From a virus, in the IMG/VR virus record IMGVR_UViG_3300046457_000122, positions 1 through 45,351 of that record: a stretch of 45,351 nucleotides of DNA; one strand, written 5' to 3'. A program made the translations under genes and the position numbers. Positions 4,732 to 43,898 of the stretch are shown here, in pieces (position 1 is the stretch's first letter; the number at the start of each line of letters is the position of its first letter). A model generated the notes under the pieces. The model was not told where the DNA came from and searched no databases. It worked only from the letters and a program-made list of their open reading frames with translations.

Positions 4732-5364
4732 CTATCTCAACATACCCAATGCGTCATTCACTTCTGATTTAAACCGCTTCACAACTCCACTACGTACAGA
4801 TGGGGAAGAACTAGGGAAATACTTCATACCGTTGTTCGCTGCCCTCTCTGTATAAATGCGTCTGATAATTTCAGCGTCTGACATATTAGGAGATATACCA
4901 GCGTTCTTGAACACTTTATTAGCTCCACCTACACCGTGTTGAGTAGCTGTAGACCAAAGTACACTCTGCAAGGCTTCAGATCGTTTGGAAACGTCTAAAC
5001 CCGTAGATTTAACAATTTTAGATACAGCAGGAGCAAAAGTGCCTTGTCTCATATATTCATGTTGTAAAGAATTAAATTGTTGTGGACTTGAAGCAGCTAC
5101 CTTCTTCCATGCGGCATCAAAGGCGGCTGTTCCCGGCTTCTTTCCAGCCAATTGCTGATACATACTTGGAGATACGTTTTTCAAATAATTCACAAACGAA
5201 TTAACACTGCCTGTATTTGTGGCAAGCTGATATGTGCCGTAGGAAGCGCCCCCAATGTCCCCGGGTGTATGTGCTACAGTTCCGGGGTTGCCACTGGATT
5301 CATATTTACTTGAGAGCGTCCCAATTCCTCCTACGGCTGTTGTTTTGGGGGCTGCCCATTCCAA
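4732..5364 (-). CDS. putative virion-associated lysozyme-like peptidoglycan hydrolase
   Basis: 210 aa with SKYESSGNPG...GDIGGASYGTYQL, a Glu-Ser type motif of lysozyme/transglycosylase-like folds (recalled pattern, no search run). The TTG start at 5364 is uncertain. Confidence 0.45.
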   Translation of the reverse strand: MEWAAPKTTAVGGIGTLSSKYESSGNPGTVAHTPGDIGGASYGTYQLATNTGSVNSFVNYLKNVSPSMYQQLAGKKPGTAAFDAAWKKVAASSPQQFNSLQHEYMRQGTFAPAVSKIVKSTGLDVSKRSEALQSVLWSTATQHGVGGANKVFKNAGISPNMSDAEIIRRIYTERAANNGMKYFPSSSPSVRSGVVKRFKSEVNDALGMLR

Positions 5365-6899
5365 GCAAGTCCATACCGTTGATATAATTTAAATTGCTCA
5401 TATTCAGTCAAAGGAGCTGCAAGTATGGACCTTTCCAGATCTGGTTTATTTGAAATGAATTCATTGCCATCAGCATCCTTAGACTTAATTACTTGACTAT
5501 CCAAGTAATCTTTCGCATAGCTTTCAGCCGTCATACCTTTACTTGCAGCAGTCCGATCTTTTTCTACTCCATATTCGAATTGACGCGCATCCAACGTCCT
5601 GATCCCCTGTGGTATGCCTGTTAAAGATGACAACTCGCTTGTTACATAACCGAGCCGATCAGAAGCCGACCATGCATTTTGCAAAGCCTGCTGATCCACT
5701 GTATTACCAAACTGAGCTGTAGAGAAATCATTTTCCCAACTTTGCTGCCCTTCGTTAAATTCTTGTTGTCTAGCAGCAAGACCGTTATTAAAATTCTGCT
5801 GTTGGGCTTGCAACGTAAGCGGCGTATTTGGGTTATTGGCTTGTCGGTTAAGCCCTTGCCAATCATCCTGTGGCGTTACAGCACGTCCAGTCATTTGACT
5901 GACCACATTAGCTGCGTTCATGTTAGATTCTTTTCGTTGCAGGTCCTGTTGTTGACCTTGCAGCGTTCTAAAACCTGTGCTCGCGTTTTGCGATGCGTTG
6001 TTAGCATTCACATTCGCACCATAAGCAGCAGAGTTAATGCCGAGAGATTCCAGTACCTTACGTCTGTTATCAGCTTGTACACTTAAATCTGCACGCTGTT
6101 GAGCAGTAGTACCTTTAGTCTCTGCTTGTTGCTTAAATGTGAGGATATCGTTTATAGCCTGTCTCGCCTCTGCTGGCATGTAGTTACCTGTTAACTGTGC
6201 CTCAGACATTGGCTTAGTAACGTCCTGCTGATACTGCAATCCATACAGGTTAGCAAGCTGCTGCGCTTGTTGCTGTGCCGCGCTTTGATCGTAGTTAGCC
6301 TTGTCGATAAACCGCCCATATGCCTGCTGCATCATCTGTGGCAAAGTTGTATTCGCAATGCTTTCCATGCTGCGATTAGCGAGTTGATTGGCTAAGGTTT
6401 CACTATATGAGGATCGACCTTGCCCGGTTGCCCGAAGTCCAGCGTTGGTGTTGCGTTGTGACGTCCCTAGATTGGCCTGCGCCTCTCTCAAGGCAGCCTG
6501 ATAAGCTGGGTCAGAATCAGGGTCATACTTAAATTCTGGCAGCTTAGAAGCCTGTGTATTGGCTAACCCTGACAAAGAGTTAAGTGTCTGTTCTAGGCGC
6601 GGCGTAGGCGGTGTAAACGTCGATGCAGTTGTGTTGTTTCGCACATTATTAGCAGCCTGCACCATAGGTGATGCCTTAGCTACAGTCGGAACAGAAACAG
6701 GCTTAGTAGGTGTCATGCCCTGCCACGCGTTATTAAAGTTTTGCTGTGTTGACATTGCTGATCCATTTGTAACAGAGCCAGGCTTAAGAAAATTCTTACC
6801 GTTCACCGTTACGTAGCCATTGCTATATCCTATTTGATTGTTTTTAACGCCCTTGTTGTTTAGTGCCTGTCGCACACCGTAATTATTGGTGGTTGCCAT
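5331..6899 (-). CDS. Gln/Asn-rich internal virion (ejection-type) protein, putative
   Basis: 522 aa with RBS ACGGAGGTG before ATG 6899. Low-complexity Q/N-rich sequence. First gene of the three-gene block that ends with the 1387-aa protein. Confidence 0.4.
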   Translation of the reverse strand: MATTNNYGVRQALNNKGVKNNQIGYSNGYVTVNGKNFLKPGSVTNGSAMSTQQNFNNAWQGMTPTKPVSVPTVAKASPMVQAANNVRNNTTASTFTPPTPRLEQTLNSLSGLANTQASKLPEFKYDPDSDPAYQAALREAQANLGTSQRNTNAGLRATGQGRSSYSETLANQLANRSMESIANTTLPQMMQQAYGRFIDKANYDQSAAQQQAQQLANLYGLQYQQDVTKPMSEAQLTGNYMPAEARQAINDILTFKQQAETKGTTAQQRADLSVQADNRRKVLESLGINSAAYGANVNANNASQNASTGFRTLQGQQQDLQRKESNMNAANVVSQMTGRAVTPQDDWQGLNRQANNPNTPLTLQAQQQNFNNGLAARQQEFNEGQQSWENDFSTAQFGNTVDQQALQNAWSASDRLGYVTSELSSLTGIPQGIRTLDARQFEYGVEKDRTAASKGMTAESYAKDYLDSQVIKSKDADGNEFISNKPDLERSILAAPLTEYEQFKLYQRYGLAWNGQPPKQQP

Positions 6900-6923
6900 T
6901 GTGCACCTCCGTTTTCAAGAATC

Positions 6924-6962
6924 AAAAAAAAGGACTACATAGATATATAGTCCTAAATTTTT
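6924..6962. terminator. hairpin terminator (strong on the minus strand)
   Basis: AGGACTA-N10-TAGTCCT stem preceded by A8 (T8 on the minus strand), with TTTTT 3 nt downstream of the stem on the plus strand. Confidence 0.65.
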
Positions 6963-7019
6963 CCTATCCAAAATATTACTTATCTACTAGAATAGTTAAT
7001 TGGATAGGAGGTGAATACT

Positions 7020-7286
7020 ATGGCTGTTTATCTGGTTAGTTATGATTTGAATGGCGCAGACAAGGATTACTCTGGATTAATAGAAGCTTTGGGAACTTTC
7101 GGCACTTGTCTGCACGTACTAGAATCTACTTGGATGATCGAGGCAAATTCTGCTCGTCAAGTTTATGATGTAGCCGAACCGCATATTGACAAAGACGATG
7201 AAATTCTGGTTATAAGAGTTGAATCAGAATACAAGGCTTATTTGCAAGAAAAAGCTTCAGAATGGATTCGAGAAGTATTAGGATAA
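7020..7286 (+). CDS. small alpha/beta protein with a Cas2/VapD-like sequence pattern (moron)
   Basis: 88 aa from ATG 7020, with GGAGGTG 6 nt upstream. It is the only plus-strand gene in the virion block. MAVYLVSYDL...FGTCLHVLESTWMIE...DKDDEILVIRV resembles the Cas2/VapD ferredoxin-like signature at pattern level only. Confidence 0.55.
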   Translation: MAVYLVSYDLNGADKDYSGLIEALGTFGTCLHVLESTWMIEANSARQVYDVAEPHIDKDDEILVIRVESEYKAYLQEKASEWIREVLG

Positions 7287-7408
7287 TACTCTGTTTTTAC
7301 TCCGTTAATACTACTGATTCGAGTGGGTGCCGTTACTGCGGCATCCTTTTTAACAGCACTCAGCATCTCTTCTCTTACAATTTCACGCACTCTGCTTTCA
7401 TCCATCAT
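7238..7408 (-). CDS. hypothetical 56-aa protein (below the ORF-track cutoff)
   Basis: TAGGAGGAATT RBS directly before ATGATG at 7408. MMDESRVREIVREEMLSAVKK... Its 3' end overlaps 7020..7286 convergently by 49 nt. Confidence 0.4.
   Translation of the reverse strand: MMDESRVREIVREEMLSAVKKDAAVTAPTRISSINGVKTEYYPNTSRIHSEAFSCK
7325..7351 (+). terminator. terminator of the plus-strand moron
   Basis: GGGTGCCG-ttactg-CGGCATCC stem (one G.U pair) followed by TTTTT. Confidence 0.6.
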
Positions 7409-7423
7409 AATTCCTCCTAATAG

Positions 7424-7451
7424 AAAAGGACCCTCATATGAGAATCCTTTT
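7424..7451. terminator. bidirectional hairpin terminator
   Basis: AAAAGGA cc CTCATATGAG aa TCCTTTT, symmetric with A/T runs on both sides, 47 nt after the stop of 7498..8079. Confidence 0.6.
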
Positions 7452-7497
7452 GCTCATTATTTTATTGTTAAGGTGTTCCTAAGTTAGTAATACCTTT

Positions 7498-8079
7498 TCA
7501 CTTGTTTTCTAGTTCAGCTTTTTGCTTTTCGAGATTTTCATTCGCTTTCTTATAATTCTCGATATTACCTTCGTACAATTTAAGGTCCGTTTCAGCAGAT
7601 CTCATTAGAACATCAGAATAAGTTCCTTTTTTCATATTTTCCTTCATTTTATCAATGGCATCTTGGTTTTCCTGTATCAGTGAGTTGTTTTCTTTAATAG
7701 CTGCCTCGATTTTTTCGAGTGTAGGCTCATAAGTTTTCACTTTTTCTTTCTCTTTTCCATCCAACGGTGTCGGTGTTGGTGTTGTGGTCTCATTTATTGG
7801 ATTACTAGACTCGTCACTCAATGCAATTCCCTCTTTTCCAAACTGGACATTCATCCTAGCTGCTTCACCAATAGCACGCACTGGGGCATAGCCCTTTCCT
7901 TCTACTACAATAGCTTTTTCGATTTCTCTCCCGTTTACCGTTACTGGAGTTTCAGATTGAACCTTTTTTCCAACCATGGTTGGAATCGCGTCTGCAAATG
8001 CTCCAGCTCCTATAGTAAATAGCACACCAGTTAAAAATCCAGCGACAGTTTTTTTCATTCCAGCAACAAATTTCTTCAT
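7498..8079 (-). CDS. secreted/membrane-anchored protein with a copper-amine-oxidase-N-like domain and coiled coil (moron)
   Basis: ATG 8079 after AAGGAG. Signal-like N-terminus MKKFVAGMKKTVAGFLTGVLFTIGAGAFA. VTVNGREIEKAIVVEGKGYAPVRAIGEA motif, TPTPTP linker and a Lys/Glu-rich coiled coil. Confidence 0.6.
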   Translation of the reverse strand: MKKFVAGMKKTVAGFLTGVLFTIGAGAFADAIPTMVGKKVQSETPVTVNGREIEKAIVVEGKGYAPVRAIGEAARMNVQFGKEGIALSDESSNPINETTTPTPTPLDGKEKEKVKTYEPTLEKIEAAIKENNSLIQENQDAIDKMKENMKKGTYSDVLMRSAETDLKLYEGNIENYKKANENLEKQKAELENK

Positions 8080-8108
8080 GATGTGTCTCCTTCGATCCAT
8101 TTTTCACC

Positions 8109-8137
8109 AATATAACACATCATGAGTAGTATATAAA
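8109..8137 (-). promoter_or_regulatory. candidate extended -10 promoter for 7498..8079
   Basis: Minus strand TTTATA-17-(TGt)TATATT, immediately downstream of the stop of 8145..8810. Confidence 0.35.
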
Positions 8138-8144
8138 TTCTTTT

Positions 8145-8810
8145 TTAAGGACTTTCGAGAGATTCAAGGCGGTCATATATTTCGTTTAGTTCGTCTTGAA
8201 GTGTTTTATTTTCATCAATACTTTTCAGTCTACTCCATCTTTGTATATTCACTGTCTCAGTTGGATTAAGAGTTATGCTTCCTCCAGCAGCTTGGATATT
8301 CATGTTGCCTACAGATACAATATCAAATCCCAAAATAGTATTAACTCTGCCTTGTACTTCTCCATTTCTGACAAAATTAATTGAAGGTGAACCGAAATAA
8401 TTAGGTTCAATAGAAATATAGTTTTTCTCATCAAAATAAGCAGCAAACAAGTTCCCCTCTGACCCCATTTCAATCTTTGGGTATTCTCCATTTGTAGAGC
8501 TAAGCAAGAACTTAGTCAGTGTAACTAACCCACTCTCAAACACCTTAAACGCCGCCTTAGCACGATCCGGGTCACCTGCCCATATACGTAAATCATCTTC
8601 TTCAGTACGTGCACTGGATAATCCTACAGCCCCATCTTTGGACTGTAACTCTGTTTTGCCGACATTATAGCCGCCAATCTCGCGGACATTTTTACTATCA
8701 ATCGCGCCGTTGACGATAAACTCTATATCTTTCATGACTCTTGCAAACAAATCCACTAATTGATCGTGGTCAGTTTGTCTGACAACTTGTGGAGCTTGAA
8801 ACATTGCCAT
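8145..8810 (-). CDS. tail-associated structural protein (putative)
   Basis: 221 aa with TTAGGAGGTATAAACA before the ATG. Last gene of the tail block. No family recognised. Confidence 0.4.
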   Translation of the reverse strand: MAMFQAPQVVRQTDHDQLVDLFARVMKDIEFIVNGAIDSKNVREIGGYNVGKTELQSKDGAVGLSSARTEEDDLRIWAGDPDRAKAAFKVFESGLVTLTKFLLSSTNGEYPKIEMGSEGNLFAAYFDEKNYISIEPNYFGSPSINFVRNGEVQGRVNTILGFDIVSVGNMNIQAAGGSITLNPTETVNIQRWSRLKSIDENKTLQDELNEIYDRLESLESP

Positions 8811-8822
8811 TGTTTATACCTC

Positions 8823-10229
8823 CTAATAAAGCGGCAACTCACGTTGTTGTCGCGTAAGTTCGTGCAGCTTAAAATAGCCTGTACCCTCAAATTTAATCCG
8901 AATATAATTTTCATTCGCCATTTTAGCGGTAGGTATGATTACCCGATGCTTAATAAGGTCGGAAGCTGGTGCAATCTCACCAACCTGCAACCAATCGTTA
9001 CCGTTGATAGATGGTGACAGGTATATCTTAAGGTTGCTAGTAGAGAGCAAATCTACCACAGCCCATAGCTTGTACATCCGTAGTTTTTGAGCGATTGAGC
9101 TATTGTTAAACGGCTTAGTTACAAGTGACCACTTAACGTCCTGTGTGCCATCCTTAGCGGCTCCAAATAGTTGTAGCACTCTACCTTTGCTATCGCCTAC
9201 ATAAAGGTTGCCAGCCATCTCTGCAAAGCATAACGGGTCGATATCGTTGAACATCGTCCAAGCTTGGATGCGTGGATCATAATTTAATATGTCGTTTTGG
9301 TGAGTGGCAAAGAACAAGGTTTTACCATCTGTCCCGGCGCAACTTGTGCTTGAGACACCGTTTATAAAGCCCTTGACGACCTCACTAAACGATTTATCAG
9401 GTAAAATACCACCAGTATATTGATAGACTCCATTAAGGTTAGCGAAGTAGATAACGCCGTCCTGCGTGATTACGCTTTGATTGTTACGCACGCCGATACG
9501 GTCAGCCACCATCTTGGTGGTAAAGTCCGATGGAACACCGCCGTACATCTCGTGGAGGCTGTTTGGCATGCCTATCGTAAGCTTGGTTAAACTACCGGAC
9601 AGCATATTTACGGTTTCCCCTGCCATGGACTCCATTTCCTTGCCGTAGCTATCTTCATCATCACCGTTGTACAATTCCCATTTCTCCGGTTGATCCAGGG
9701 CACAGGACTTTATCTCTTTGCCTACAGCACACCACAACCTATTTTGGTAGGTGGTAATATAGTTGCCTTTGGCTGGTGCTCCGGTTAAATCGGCTACCGT
9801 GGTACCGTCATAGTGTTTAATAGGATCTACTCCATTGGCACCGACTAAATGGATATCTGACCAGTTACCTTGAAAGTTCGTAAATGACCAACGGGCCGAG
9901 GTATCAAGCCCGGAAGCTAGTGTTTGCCAAGTATTATTGTTAAACACTCGCCATGTACCATCGCCAAATACCGCATGCAACTGTTGATTTTTCCAGACGC
10001 CTAACCCGAGCACCGCTGTACTTATCGCACTGCCAAGTACGCTGTAACCACGCCTGGCTGCTATAACCGGGTATTCGTCCAATACAAAGTTGCTAATGCT
10101 GGTAAACAAATTGTCCGCAATGGATAAAGGGTCGAAGCTGCTCAACCCTTTCCATTCACGGACCGTTATTGCCTGTTGTATACCGGGTAGCGGTTGGTAA
10201 TTGGCTTGTGGGTACCGGATCACATTCAC
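8823..10229 (-). CDS. tail structural protein (putative)
   Basis: About 468 aa. The likely start is GTG 10229, which overlaps the upstream TGA (GTGA coupling) after GAGGGCGGTGG. Assigned by position in the tail block. Confidence 0.4.
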   Translation of the reverse strand: MNVIRYPQANYQPLPGIQQAITVREWKGLSSFDPLSIADNLFTSISNFVLDEYPVIAARRGYSVLGSAISTAVLGLGVWKNQQLHAVFGDGTWRVFNNNTWQTLASGLDTSARWSFTNFQGNWSDIHLVGANGVDPIKHYDGTTVADLTGAPAKGNYITTYQNRLWCAVGKEIKSCALDQPEKWELYNGDDEDSYGKEMESMAGETVNMLSGSLTKLTIGMPNSLHEMYGGVPSDFTTKMVADRIGVRNNQSVITQDGVIYFANLNGVYQYTGGILPDKSFSEVVKGFINGVSSTSCAGTDGKTLFFATHQNDILNYDPRIQAWTMFNDIDPLCFAEMAGNLYVGDSKGRVLQLFGAAKDGTQDVKWSLVTKPFNNSSIAQKLRMYKLWAVVDLLSTSNLKIYLSPSINGNDWLQVGEIAPASDLIKHRVIIPTAKMANENYIRIKFEGTGYFKLHELTRQQRELPLY

Positions 10230-29613: not shown

Positions 29614-30373
29614 CGTTACCACCTCCTTTTTGCTTCCTAAATGTTTCAAATGGTTTATTCTCAGTTAGAAACTGATCTATGTTTTTGGGATTCATAAACT
29701 TGTCCAAAGTGAATTTGTACGTATACCAATAAAGTTCGCTTGTAATAATAGTGTTGTAGTTACCAATAGCCTCTCTCATTTCATCAACGGTCATATTCTC
29801 CAGTCGGGCGTTTATGCTAGATTTCATTTTCTGAGTCAGTTCCCGATGTTTGATAATTTCGAGAGAATTCCAAAAATCATATATATCTTTTATATCTTTG
29901 TTTACATTGTTATCTTTGTTATTACTTTGTTCTTTTGTGGTTAGCAGATGGTTAGCAGATGGTTGGCAGGTGGTTAGCAGGTGGTTAGTCTGCTGGTTAT
30001 CATCACCTTGAATCCCTTGCCCTGTATGGGTTTCCTGCTGGTTATTCTGATGGTTAAATTTTTCGTAATTTATAACTTTATAGATCGAGAAGTATCTATG
30101 TTTTGAAACTAACTCGATCATTTCTTCTTTAATTAGCTTTTTTATAAGAGTTCTAATCCTCTGTTCTCCCACGTTTAACCGACCGCTCCACTTAATCCGA
30201 CCAAACATAAATTCCCCGTAGTTCAGCGTGTATACTTCACCATCCTGAAAATCTGTCTTTGGCTCTCTCGCATACCTGGCGCAACACAGCATTTCAAACC
30301 AAACTTTGAAGTATTCCGGATCTTTATAAATCCAATGATTTCTTATGTCCCGGTCAATACCGATGAAGGCCAT
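29465..30373 (-). CDS. replisome organizer / DnaD-like replication initiator
   Basis: N-terminal WIYKDPEYFKVWFEMLCCA winged-helix-like region. C-terminal IYDFWNS...YWYTYKFTLDKF resembles the conserved phage C-terminus of such proteins. Contains the iteron array. Confidence 0.6.
   Translation of the reverse strand: MAFIGIDRDIRNHWIYKDPEYFKVWFEMLCCARYAREPKTDFQDGEVYTLNYGEFMFGRIKWSGRLNVGEQRIRTLIKKLIKEEMIELVSKHRYFSIYKVINYEKFNHQNNQQETHTGQGIQGDDNQQTNHLLTTCQPSANHLLTTKEQSNNKDNNVNKDIKDIYDFWNSLEIIKHRELTQKMKSSINARLENMTVDEMREAIGNYNTIITSELYWYTYKFTLDKFMNPKNIDQFLTENKPFETFRKQKGGGNGGKSGRYDARNAEANRKDANKNEELFIGKFGHNTVENPEEFDRMLRNFE
29938..30000. repeat. five to six tandem 11-bp iterons (putative origin of replication)
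   Basis: TGGTTAGCAGA TGGTTAGCAGA TGGTTGGCAGG TGGTTAGCAGG TGGTTAGTCTGC TGGTTAT, flanked on the low-coordinate side by an AT-rich stretch (about 29850..29937). Confidence 0.6.
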
Positions 30374-34391: not shown

Positions 34392-34428
34392 TTATAGGTG
34401 GTATATAGGGGTATATAGGGGTATAGGG
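34392..34428. repeat. tandem about 10-bp GGGGTATATA repeats
   Basis: TTATAGGTG GTATATAGGG GTATATAGGG GTATAGGG, immediately upstream (minus sense) of the ASCH gene RBS. Confidence 0.8.
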
Positions 34429-39188: not shown

Positions 39189-39217
39189 ACTATAACTCTC
39201 CATTTTGTGGTTGTCAA
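39189..39217 (-). promoter_or_regulatory. early lytic promoter (PR-like)
   Basis: Minus strand TTGACA-17 nt-TATAGT with a motif copy in the spacer. Confidence 0.6.
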
Positions 39218-39264
39218 TATGTTTTTGCAACATATTGTGGCTTTATTTAGCTAAAAAAACTTTA

Positions 39265-39293
39265 TTGCAACTTTTCGTGGCTTTAATTTTATT
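39265..39293 (+). promoter_or_regulatory. candidate repressor promoter (PRM-like)
   Basis: TTGCAA-17 nt-TTTATT with a motif copy in the spacer. The -10 element is weak. Confidence 0.4.
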
Positions 39294-39334
39294 TGACACA
39301 TTATGTGGAGTAAAATACAGGAGGGATTCAATAA

Positions 39335-39769
39335 ATGAATATAATTAAAGGAGAGATAATTAAATTGCTGCCGGATCGCCTTATTAGCTTGAGGAAAGAG
39401 AAGAAATTGACTCAAGAGAAAATCGCGGAAAAATTGGGCATTACAAGATCCGCCTACTCACAATACGAACTCGGAACTAGGAACCCTGATCACGAAACAT
39501 TAAATAAAATGGCTGACTTTCATAACTCCTCAATTGATTACTTAATGGGCAGAACTGATATTCGAACGCAGATATTAACAGAACCTTCAAGAGAACTAAT
39601 TGATTCACTTGATTTAGCTGATGAAGACATAATTAAGAAATTTAATTTTCAAGTAGATGGAGTGGAATTAAAGGAAGACGAAGTTCACAGATTTATTGCG
39701 TTTGTCAGGGCAGAGAGAGCTATGAAGAACAAAAATCATGATTCTCAGAACGATGAAGATGATCTTTAA
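39335..39769 (+). CDS. CI-like XRE-family repressor (no S24 peptidase domain)
   Basis: HTH LTQEKIAEKLGITRSAYSQYELGTRNP. RBS CAGGAGGG. 144 aa with a helical acidic C-terminus. Confidence 0.8.
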   Translation: MNIIKGEIIKLLPDRLISLRKEKKLTQEKIAEKLGITRSAYSQYELGTRNPDHETLNKMADFHNSSIDYLMGRTDIRTQILTEPSRELIDSLDLADEDIIKKFNFQVDGVELKEDEVHRFIAFVRAERAMKNKNHDSQNDEDDL

Positions 39770-42134: not shown

Positions 42135-42171
42135 GAAATAGACCGAATCCTTAGCCAGGGCGGTCTATTTC
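42135..42171. terminator. 11-bp perfect hairpin overlapping the toxin stop codon
   Basis: GAAATAGACCG-N15-CGGTCTATTTC, followed on the plus strand by CTTTTAT. Confidence 0.5.
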
Positions 42172-42355: not shown

Positions 42356-42405
42356 GTTAATAGTCACCTACAATACAAACAAACACTAAACAGGTGGTGC
42401 ACAAG

Positions 42406-43842
42406 ATGGAATCTACACTAAAAATGATACGAGCTGCTGGGTATGGACGGGTGAGTACCGAAGAGCAGGCTAACGAAGGTCACTCTCTCGATGCTCAGAG
42501 AGAATTCAACCTAAAATATATAGAAAATGAAAAGTGGATATTGTCTGGATATTTTGAGGACCCCGGATACTCAGGCAAAAACCTGAACAGACCAGACGTG
42601 AAACGATTGATACAAGAGATTAAAAGCAAAAACTTAGACGCATTGGTGGTTCATAAATTGGACCGCTTGACCCGTGATATAAAAGACTTATATGAGATGC
42701 TCCAAATGTTTGATGAATATAACATTAAGTTTGTTTCTATATCCGAAAAGATAGATACAGATACCGCCATGGGACGAATGTTTGTTTTTATGTTGGGTAT
42801 ATTTGCTCAATGGTACCGGGAGAATTTATCTGAGGAAGTTACAAAAGGGATGCGCGCTCGAGCTAAAAAAGGGATACCTAATGTATTTGTAAATATGTTT
42901 GGATACACTCGCACTCCTGAGGGTGAACTTATTATCAACGAGGAAGAGGCTAAATGGGTAAGATGGATATTTGAACAATACTTAGATGGCAAAGGAACTG
43001 CTACTATCGCTAAGGAACTAAACAATATGAACATTCGCCGATCTCGCGGCGGTAGATGGAGCCAAACAAAGGTTATGGATGTTTTAGAAAACCAACACTA
43101 CGTCGGAAATATAACCTGGAAGAGCAAAAAAGATGATGAGGAAGACCGCATAATAAGAAAAGGCGCTCATATAGGAATCATTGATGAAGAAACGTTTGAC
43201 CGGGTACAACGTTGGATACAGCGACGTAGAGACGGGCTTAGATCACGTAATTCCTACAACTATGCATTCGGTGGTGTCTTGCGTTGTGGTAAATGTGGCG
43301 GTCGATACAAAGGTAAATATGCAATTAGTGGTGGAACGCTAACATACAATTATGTTTGCTCGAATAAAGAACGGTATCATACATGCGACCAATCATCTAT
43401 ATCGGAGACCAAACTTGTGAAAATGTTATTTAAGTCACTTGATATGGATAATGAGAATTTATTTTGGAAAGATGATGTAAAGGAATCCAATAACTCTGAA
43501 GAAGAGCAAATTAGAAGAGCAATCAAAGCAAGCGAAGAAAGACGGGAACGTTGGCAAATGGCATATGGGGACGGTTTTATGCCCTATCAGGACTTTAGCA
43601 ATCGTATGAAAGAAGAGATGCAACGTGTTGTTGAACTTGAGGAAAAACTAAGTGGGCTGCCGGGTGCTGTAGTATCGACGCTTGACCCCGCAGAAGTAAT
43701 AAGCATAATGCAAGATATTAAAGAGAATTGGTGGTACATGGAACGATCAACGCAAAAGCAATTAATACAAGAGTTGTTCCAAGATATTTCAATTTTAAAA
43801 GATGGGAAAGAATGGGGAATTAAAGGGATAGCATTCGCATAG
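42406..43842 (+). CDS. int: large serine recombinase (integrase)
   Basis: YGRVSTEEQ catalytic-Ser motif and resolvase fold, a recombinase domain, a Cys-rich zinc ribbon (CGKCGG...C..C..HTC) and a C-terminal coiled coil. ATG 42406 after AGGTGGTG. Confidence 0.9.
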   Translation: MESTLKMIRAAGYGRVSTEEQANEGHSLDAQREFNLKYIENEKWILSGYFEDPGYSGKNLNRPDVKRLIQEIKSKNLDALVVHKLDRLTRDIKDLYEMLQMFDEYNIKFVSISEKIDTDTAMGRMFVFMLGIFAQWYRENLSEEVTKGMRARAKKGIPNVFVNMFGYTRTPEGELIINEEEAKWVRWIFEQYLDGKGTATIAKELNNMNIRRSRGGRWSQTKVMDVLENQHYVGNITWKSKKDDEEDRIIRKGAHIGIIDEETFDRVQRWIQRRRDGLRSRNSYNYAFGGVLRCGKCGGRYKGKYAISGGTLTYNYVCSNKERYHTCDQSSISETKLVKMLFKSLDMDNENLFWKDDVKESNNSEEEQIRRAIKASEERRERWQMAYGDGFMPYQDFSNRMKEEMQRVVELEEKLSGLPGAVVSTLDPAEVISIMQDIKENWWYMERSTQKQLIQELFQDISILKDGKEWGIKGIAFA

Positions 43843-43891
43843 TTTGTACCTGTGTACCCTCTGGTAAGCCAACGGGTGCATAGGTACAAAC
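43842..43891. other. candidate attP core for the serine integrase
   Basis: 50-bp imperfect palindrome, 19 of 25 positions symmetric, with perfect outer 10-bp arms GTTTGTACCT/AGGTACAAAC. The centre is AA at 43866..43867. It begins at the last base of the int stop codon. Confidence 0.45.
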
Positions 43892-43898
43892 TTTTAAC

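Follow-up and report, generated by a model that had tools for sequence, protein, structure and literature searches.

A solo Cas2-superfamily gene in an optional, lysogeny-oriented moron of a Paenibacillus prophage

The gene described here is carried by the IMG/VR virus record IMGVR_UViG_3300046457_000122, a stretch of 45,351 nucleotides that was analysed over its full length (the window) and is a complete temperate Paenibacillus prophage. At 7020..7286 on the plus strand, the window encodes a protein of 88 amino acids, which starts with MAVYLVSYDL, ends with REVLG, and is a member of the Cas2 superfamily. The protein falls within PHROG 1090, a family that is very large and uncharacterised, consists of solo proteins of about 90 amino acids, and is distinct from the Cas2 of CRISPR systems, from VapD, and from BPSL1038. 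Its locus is an optional moron that is oriented with the lysogeny genes and flanked by duplicated terminator hairpins. We would give about an even chance to the reading that this lysogeny-oriented accessory gene encodes a solo, nuclease-like conflict effector with the Cas2 fold, which is active in the lysogen and is turned off by convergent transcription of the lytic genes.

The original prediction had read a ferredoxin fold of the Cas2/VapD type from patterns in the sequence, and the fold was confirmed by an AlphaFold2 model, by Foldseek, and by matches to Cas2 hidden Markov models (HMMs) at the level of the family. With 115 homologues, AlphaFold2 returned a model with a predicted local distance difference test (pLDDT) of 92 and a predicted template modelling score (pTM) of 0.80; the run with 3 sequences was uninformative (pLDDT 47). 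The topology of the model was beta1-alpha1-beta2-beta3-alpha2-beta4-alpha3, with strands at residues 2-9, 30-34, 37-42, and 61-67 and helices at 18-24, 45-55, and 77-87. Cas2 structures made up most of the top 21 Foldseek matches in the PDB, with a probability of 1.0. The best TM-score was obtained with BPSL1038 (7vxr_B), with TMq 0.76 and TMt 0.77 over 90 columns, and GhoS ranked 19th. The predicted likeness to Cas2 held, but the protein is closer to Cas2 and BPSL1038 than to VapD, which ranked 34th (6zi1, TM 0.55); no VapD family appeared among the NCBIfam and Pfam matches of 115 family members.

When the window protein was searched alone, Pfam Cas2 (PF09827) was matched at E = 0.032 with 14.8 bits against a cut-off of 23.8, and residues 3-71 were aligned to positions 2-70 of the 74 in the model. 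The single protein had no NCBIfam match, and phmmer found no Cas2 among the PDB sequences. At the family level, Pfam Cas2 was matched by 52 of the 115 members at E <= 1 (best E = 1.6e-8), TIGR01573 by 28, and the PADLOC Cas2 models by up to 47. The two best matches of the family profile among the PDB sequences were Cas2 chains. In the profile alignment, Y8-D9 of the family fell on the YD of Cas2 7mi4_E and of Bacillus halodurans Cas2 (4es1_A), and the D60-S motif fell on DSLRIY of Cas2.

The assignment to PHROG 1090 was based on a match of residues 1-85 to phrog_1090, annotated as function unknown (E = 2.1e-19), and on a match of 101 bits (E = 2e-33) to an HMM built from 113 relatives without the window protein itself. 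A word-indexed protein search returned 2 relatives only, and the rest were found by an exhaustive HMMER search, which recovered 3,227 representatives of clusters at 50% identity at E <= 1e-3, a lower bound for the size of the family, and 728 of them at E <= 1e-10. Among the 150 best matches listed, nearly all had a length of 86-100 amino acids. The consensus of the family is M.vY.ISYDL..pG..Y..L...IK....WwH.LdSTWLI.t......v...L...iD.nD.llV.....Y.GWL...AW.W, and the residues conserved among the 113 relatives include Y8 (100%), D60 (98%), W38 (95%), D9 (90%), and S36 (89%). D9 is an aspartate of the catalytic type at the C-terminal end of strand 1. The gene is thus a new member of an already catalogued family whose members are now and then labelled "Cas2" or, mistakenly, "SinR family". 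The names "SinR family protein", "sinR-like", and "SinR" were seen on members in NCBI, UniRef, and GenBank (P0157, P0202; L123:3501-3779; L126:3501-3770). Since no helix-turn-helix (HTH) family of the SinR type was found among the Pfam matches of PHROG 1090, this label looks like a propagated misnomer.

The closest structural relative, BPSL1038 of Burkholderia pseudomallei (7vxr), is a solo Cas2/VapD-like protein that is reported to cleave double-stranded DNA independently of divalent ions and to have a D11(X20)SST site (PMC10491678). It shares with the window protein the length of 88 amino acids, a solo context without CRISPR, and the same extra C-terminal helix, which corresponds to residues 77-87 of our model. 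Both also carry an aspartate where strand 1 ends and a Ser-Thr pair at the turn that joins strands 2 and 3; in PHROG 1090 these are D9 and [DE]35-S36-T37, a possible counterpart of the BPSL1038 motif. When compared by sequence position, the motif of BPSL1038 has a spacing of 20 and two serines, whereas that of PHROG 1090 has a spacing of 26 and one serine. Furthermore, there is no detectable sequence similarity between the two: the family profile did not reach 7vxr at E <= 10 among the PDB sequences, and the identity in the fold alignment was 11%. The orthologues of BPSL1038 are confined to few genera, whereas the PHROG 1090 family is spread across phyla and carried by phages.

With CRISPR Cas2, the family has in common the ferredoxin-like fold, the Y-D-[ILV] of strand 1 with its catalytic-type aspartate, and the D-S-[LIV] of strand 4. 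It differs in having its own Trp-rich C-terminal helix and a WWHxL[DE]STW motif, and in occurring as a lone prophage gene or as the distal gene of conflict-system operons; the window gene has no cas1, other cas gene, or array nearby. VapD of the VapD/VapX pair is likewise a small protein of the same superfamily and fold that is found on mobile elements. Nevertheless, no VapD HMM was matched, and the structural match was weaker than those to Cas2 and BPSL1038.

The orientation of the gene follows from the organisation of the prophage. The plus strand encodes a cI-like HTH protein (39335..39769) and a serine recombinase (42394..43842). On the minus strand are the genes for a cro-like HTH protein and a Bro-N/KilAC antirepressor, together with every gene for replication, packaging, head, and tail. 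The Cas2-like gene shares its strand with the cI-like repressor and the serine integrase; its direction is therefore that of the lysogeny genes and opposite to that of the late operon. Paenibacillus peoriae (L001) and a Logan assembly (L002) contain near-identical prophages, whose annotation includes SU10-type adaptors, capsid, a pectate-lyase-type tail spike, amidase, and holin. A DNA search of the GenBank phages with window positions 6000-9000 matched nothing. The Cas2-like gene had been described as solo, in a genome without cas1, other cas genes, or a CRISPR array, and within the 45-kb window this is true: PADLOC found no cas protein among the 74 open reading frames (ORFs), and Tandem Repeats Finder found no CRISPR-like array.

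The optional nature of the locus was revealed by comparison with related phages. The cassette, of about 496 nt when counted between the repeated AAAAGGAC, occupies 6936..7423 and lies between two late genes of the tail region, which encode proteins of 200 and 522 amino acids. Homologues of the 522-aa gene were found in three IMG/VR phages (L120, L121, and L122), and the slot was compared by BLASTN of window 5301-8900 against L120 and L121, by alignments, and by an ORF map of L122. In L121 the slot is empty. The sequence corresponding to window position 7424 is joined straight to 6935 via the 8-nt repeat AAAAGGAC (6928-6935 and 7424-7431), and one bidirectional terminator hairpin separates the homologues of the 200-aa and 522-aa genes. 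The slot of L122 is also empty, with just a 65-nt intergenic spacer. The window has two hairpins instead. The right one (AAAAGGACCCTCAT/ATGAGAATCCTTTT, 7424..7451) is the terminator after the 200-aa late gene and matches the single hairpin of the empty site. The left one (6924..6961), detected by repeat and terminator scans, is terminator-like on the minus strand, with a stem at 6954-6931 followed by T8, and is a diverged duplicate of that single terminator.

L120 keeps both ends of the cassette, namely the side with promoter and ribosome binding site (RBS) up to window position 7015 and the side with RBS and terminator from 7410 onward, which is 96.7% identical. The part in between, window 7016-7409, is swapped for other cargo. 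This cargo (L120:3502-3892) encodes an 84-aa Zn-ribbon protein that resembles Com of phage Mu (Pfam PF10122, E = 7.5e-4; phrog_6417 "translational regulator", E = 8e-4), and it includes a different convergent ORF of 45 amino acids that starts behind the same RBS as its counterpart in the window. A slot that is empty in L121 and L122 and filled with other cargo between conserved ends in L120 indicates a moron of about 496 nt with exchangeable cargo. The slot, which occurs empty, with Cas2-like cargo, and with Zn-ribbon cargo, also gives natural experimental controls. The morons of lambda and HK97-type phages are likewise optional, have their own terminator and RBS, lie between backbone genes, are bounded by hairpins, and are missing in sister phages. 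The present cassette differs from them in being antisense to the operon, and its slot in having conserved ends with exchangeable cargo. As for the expression signals of its own that a moron should have, a terminator and an RBS were found, and the promoter is represented by a -10-like element only.

These signals were read from the sequence as follows. A Shine-Dalgarno sequence AGGAGGTG is located at 7006..7013 on the plus strand (GGAGGTG at 7007-7013). Downstream of the gene, the terminator scan found an intrinsic terminator at 7325..7351 on the plus strand, with a 9-bp stem (7325-7346), a 4-nt loop, and T5. A 56-aa ORF lies at 7238..7408 on the minus strand; it encloses this terminator, and the Cas2-like coding sequence shares its last 49 nt with it. 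All of these features had been predicted and are present. L001 and L002 have two substitutions near the terminator, both outside the stem. Between the window and L001, the Cas2-like coding sequence shows 10 nucleotide changes and 4 amino-acid changes, and so few amino-acid changes suggest purifying selection.

It had also been claimed that a perfect 9-bp inverted repeat brackets the promoter and the RBS. The repeat is real and perfect, and its length is 10 nt, with the left arm TCCTATCCAA at 6962..6971 and the right arm TTGGATAGGA at 7000..7009 of the plus strand. The right arm does overlap the Shine-Dalgarno sequence and covers half of it. On the other hand, the promoter scan called no sigma-70-type promoter between the arms; the only candidate is the -10-like hexamer TAGAAT (6988..6993, plus strand), a putative promoter element with a weak -35 that aligns with TAAAAT in L120. 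Six distinct perfect 10-nt inverted repeats with loops of at most 40 nt occurred in the window, compared with 2.1 ± 1.9 in dinucleotide shuffles, and the repeat by itself is weak evidence that is not significant above chance. As RNA it forms a 12-bp hairpin of -15.5 kcal/mol (z = -1.8), which would occlude AGGAGG only in those transcripts that start upstream of 6960. A role as an operator in common with the cI/cro switch was considered and rejected, since the half-site had no further copy anywhere in the window, the cI/cro switch included, and the alignment showed that the repeat is not kept in the related L120 cassette. The cI/cro intergenic region itself (window 39200-39334) contains repeated ..GTGGCTTTA.. 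and TTGCAAC motifs, which are probably operators and are unrelated to this inverted repeat.

Relatives of the gene were found by tblastn in published temperate phages at 30-40% identity. They include gp05 of the Enterococcus phages phiFL1A to phiFL3B, gp49 of the Staphylococcus phage StB20-like, annotated "cas2", proteins of the Staphylococcus phages vB_G30_01 and SpT99F3 labelled as Cas-associated, an unannotated homologue in Bacillus phage phi4B1, and homologues in Clostridium phage CP51 and Mannheimia phage 587AP2 (gp77). The homologues in Klebsiella P2-like phages are annotated "SinR" or "CRISPR-associated endoribonuclease", for example gp32 of ST437-OXA245phi4.1 ("SinR"). The same similarity is mentioned in passing in a paper on a Sinorhizobium prophage (PMC12429752). 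In phiFL1A, StB20-like, phi4B1, and 587AP2 the homologue has the same direction as cI and int and is embedded antisense in the early lytic operon, next to the cI/cro switch. Three of these phages (phiFL1A, StB20-like, and 587AP2) also have a small convergent gene whose overlap with the 3' end of the homologue measures 4-23 nt. Thus the arrangement, which had been thought undescribed, is already present in published phages, some of which carry the cas2 annotation. The window gene shares with these phages the family and the orientation as a lone gene in the lysogeny direction against a lytic operon. It differs in position, between late tail-region genes, whereas the published homologues lie mostly in the early or immunity region, and their convergent neighbours are proteins unrelated to the 56-aa ORF.

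The orientation was also evaluated in 23 distinct IMG/VR loci, which are partly related by descent and were annotated with a crude ORF caller. In this sample, 14 of the 23 viral homologues were lone opposite-strand genes, compared with 45 of 311 other genes (p = 1.6e-6), and a convergent overlapping neighbour was found for 13 of 23 compared with 37 of 311 (p = 1.6e-6). The convergent overlap that had been noticed in the window is therefore real and recurrent. The small convergent neighbours in the other phages belong to the unrelated PHROGs 13078, 12362, 14969, and 4621. These results indicate that the geometry recurs in the phage homologues and the partner does not.

In Firmicutes phages the homologues run antisense to the early operon, within or adjoining the cI/cro region, a location that would suit an accessory regulator of the lysis-lysogeny decision, which binds or cleaves phage transcripts, as in the mRNA cleavage by GhoS, and thereby stabilises lysogeny or times induction. 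GhoS is among the fold matches, and pairs of ImmA/IrrE and XRE genes are frequent as neighbours. We nevertheless consider such a regulator quite unlikely. The genes of the window and of the Klebsiella P2-like phage are located in the midst of late or structural genes, a long way from the switch (the Klebsiella homologue abuts the portal gene and adjoins three hypothetical genes), the gene is optional cargo that is missing from sister phages, and many cellular homologues are in contexts that have no link to prophage switches.

In cells, the homologue frequently occupies the distal position in a short operon, where it follows genes for an AbiEii-like nucleotidyltransferase, RiboL-PSP-HEPN, HicA-HicB, ImmA/IrrE, small membrane proteins, or an AAA_14/DUF4143 ATPase within a type I restriction-modification operon. 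The families of these neighbours were obtained from scans of selected neighbours, and the crude ORF caller gave many spurious ORFs of high GC content. The neighbourhoods are conflict-system or mobile-element contexts. The gap after the upstream gene was -8 to +10 nt, except after the ImmA/IrrE gene of the XRE plus ImmA/IrrE (M78) pair, where it was 92-150 nt; the loci with AbiEii, HEPN, HicA-HicB, or XRE plus ImmA/IrrE upstream are L055, L085/L088, L066/L074/L079/L086/L090, and L045/L093/L095. In a metagenome-assembled genome of Deltaproteobacteria (L003:966-2538, also L004-L007), a member with 35% identity follows the ATPase gene with a 1-nt start/stop overlap, and the pair sits between hsdM and hsdS of the operon. 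Possibly, the pair forms an accessory module of the restriction-modification system that is as yet uncharacterised.

A phage-borne Cas2 homologue in a window without cas1 or CRISPR array could also be a decoy, a mimic that binds host Cas1 or replaces Cas2, blocks spacer acquisition, and so spares the prophage from self-targeting. The lysogeny orientation suits anti-CRISPR proteins expressed by prophages, and viral homologues of cas genes can be anti-CRISPRs (bioRxiv 10.1101/2023.06.24.545427, a work that does not cover Cas2). We regard a decoy as very unlikely, because the family spans phyla and is also found in cellular operons with toxin-antitoxin, HEPN, AbiEii, and restriction-modification genes, and because its best-conserved parts are the catalytic-type aspartate and a family-specific Trp-rich C-terminal helix unlike the C-terminal tail of Cas2. 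Cas1 was not among the recurrent neighbours identified in the related loci. The neighbours of about 300-360 amino acids were not Cas1-like when their N-termini were judged by eye, and some resembled transposases or housekeeping proteins.

The 56-aa ORF had been proposed as the partner of the Cas2-like gene in an antisense-coupled two-gene system. This proposal could not be sustained: the ORF is specific to the cassette, it matched no family in Pfam or PHROG, a search of 5.8 billion proteins gave a single near-identical relative, and the sequence comparison indicates that it is not a conserved partner. Its last 16 residues (41-56) are the antisense reading of the Cas2-like C-terminus, a frame (…IHSHA..G.QP) that is open in many family members, and DAAVTAP in its middle is encoded by the terminator stem. 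In the unique part there are 3 substitutions between the window and L001/L002, two of them, V to G and T to P, being radical and outside the terminator stem. The first ATG is lost in L001/L002, where the ORF has 55 amino acids from the ATG at 7405. Its Shine-Dalgarno sequence AGGAGG (7414..7419, minus strand), 4-7 nt before the start, is common to the L120 cassette. The occurrence of an ORF behind the same strong RBS in two unrelated cassettes suggests that the 56-aa ORF is translated from the late mRNA. Most simply, it would be a cassette-specific small ORF which is translated through the conserved RBS and whose role may be independent of its sequence, for instance by reducing the stretch of the late operon that the antisense insert leaves untranslated, or it may be a small protein specific to the cargo.

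Small convergent minus-strand genes in the Clostridia-type IMG/VR phages L008, L010, L016, L017, L018, and L027 share a C-terminal F-I-P-E-D-S. They are located about 45-60 nt downstream of the Cas2-like stop codon and show synonymous third-position variation, and they are real coding genes unrelated to the 56-aa ORF. Homology between them and the 56-aa ORF, which has Y-Y-P-N-T-S, was considered and rejected, because the motif of the window falls within the overlap, where it merely reads the Cas2-like C-terminus (REVLG*) in antisense, whereas the motif of the other phages lies 45-60 nt past the stop codon and has synonymous variation of its own.

The small convergent ORFs bear on another explanation, in which the Cas2-like protein is an RNase or DNase toxin that is neutralised by the 56-aa protein or by an antisense RNA overlapping its 3' end, as in the type I system txpA/RatA. 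The enrichment of convergent overlapping neighbours next to the phage homologues, the HicAB, AbiEii, and HEPN genes beside the cellular ones, and the small convergent ORF behind the same RBS in the two independent cassettes of the window and L120 all agree with it. Still, a toxin-antitoxin pair seems unlikely to us. The small ORFs are mutually unrelated and that of the window has no family, two of the three changes in its unique part are radical, and many homologues stand alone. VapD/VapX and type II pairs are co-directional, whereas here no co-directional VapX-like antitoxin gene is present, the flanking genes are on the opposite strand, and the sole small neighbour is convergent. The toxins of type I systems are small hydrophobic peptides, unlike this soluble 88-aa protein with an alpha/beta fold, and only the convergent geometry is in common. 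No VapD model was matched, and a search of window 6500-8000 against Rfam at E <= 1 found no RNA family, including no antitoxin RNA.

According to the reading we favour, a solo conflict effector of the lysogen, the lysogen would produce the Cas2-like protein under the gene's own weak promoter, with transcription stopping at the gene's own terminator. By analogy with Cas2 and BPSL1038, it would act alone, probably as a homodimer, and D9 together with the Ser-Thr turn S36-T37 would form a predicted site for cleaving or binding nucleic acids. It may serve the prophage in conflicts between elements, for example in superinfection defence, abortive infection, or addiction. Once the prophage is induced, the gene would be shut off by late transcription that runs through the cassette in the convergent direction.

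Several points weigh against this reading. PHROG 1090 is uncharacterised, and expression of the gene in the lysogen is deduced only from the orientation and the analogy with other morons, as no sigma-70 promoter was called upstream of the gene. The nuclease activity of Cas2 is dispensable in CRISPR adaptation (PMC6452270), and the conserved aspartate is therefore no proof of catalysis. The orientation bias seen in the phages is absent from the cellular homologues, and the relatedness of the viral loci and the crude ORF calls given above also apply. Lastly, the window protein scored below the Pfam Cas2 cut-off and departs from the family consensus at conserved positions (W30C, G73A, W74Y, and W80S).

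These replacements of conserved aromatic and glycine residues, together with the weak promoter, would be expected if the window copy were a decaying or non-functional passenger that has lost its function. This is highly improbable in our judgement. The ORF is intact and has a strong RBS and a terminator, the core residues Y8, D9, L10, Y17, H32, S36, T37, W38, D57, D60, and W82 are retained, the changes relative to L001 suggest purifying selection as described above, and the structure model is confident.

To our knowledge, Cas2 is universal in CRISPR systems, and its nuclease site has no known role there. Cas2 is thought to derive from a toxin on a mobile element, and Makarova and Koonin reportedly proposed a toxin-like, pre-CRISPR ancestor of it. 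A broader proposal would be that PHROG 1090 consists of widespread, phage-borne solo Cas2 homologues that are specific to the lysogen, as a Cas1-Cas2 decoy or a superinfection-excluding nuclease, and are switched by convergent transcription of the lytic operon. We rate this generalisation as doubtful at best, with little chance of being correct; if it were true, the PHROG 1090 proteins would be a living example of such an ancestor. Because the family is large, enriched in phages, and solo, keeps the aspartate, and is oriented for lysogeny inside lytic operons, it is a tractable place to study the free-standing Cas2 fold. The finding itself is modest, as the family is catalogued and sometimes already annotated "Cas2", and the proposed two-gene antisense system is not conserved.

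Other features of the prophage were observed in the course of the scans. Aggregated over the prophage ORFs, PADLOC gave a strong match to a type II or orphan DNA methyltransferase (E = 8.5e-76), as well as RmrA-like, HTH, and capH matches. An 11-nt tandem repeat, TGGTTAGCAG[A/C], is present in about 5.5 copies with 88-92% matches at window 29938-29999 and has an iteron-like look, and a 9-nt repeat lies near it at 29884-29922. In the early region, a 10-nt tandem repeat TATAGGGGTA occurs in 3.2 copies in the intergenic sequence at 34393-34425. Further inverted repeats with short loops and perfect arms of 10 nt or more were located at 8076-8125, 42135-42171, and 43841-43892, the last of which lies directly past the stop codon of the integrase gene and is probably its terminator.

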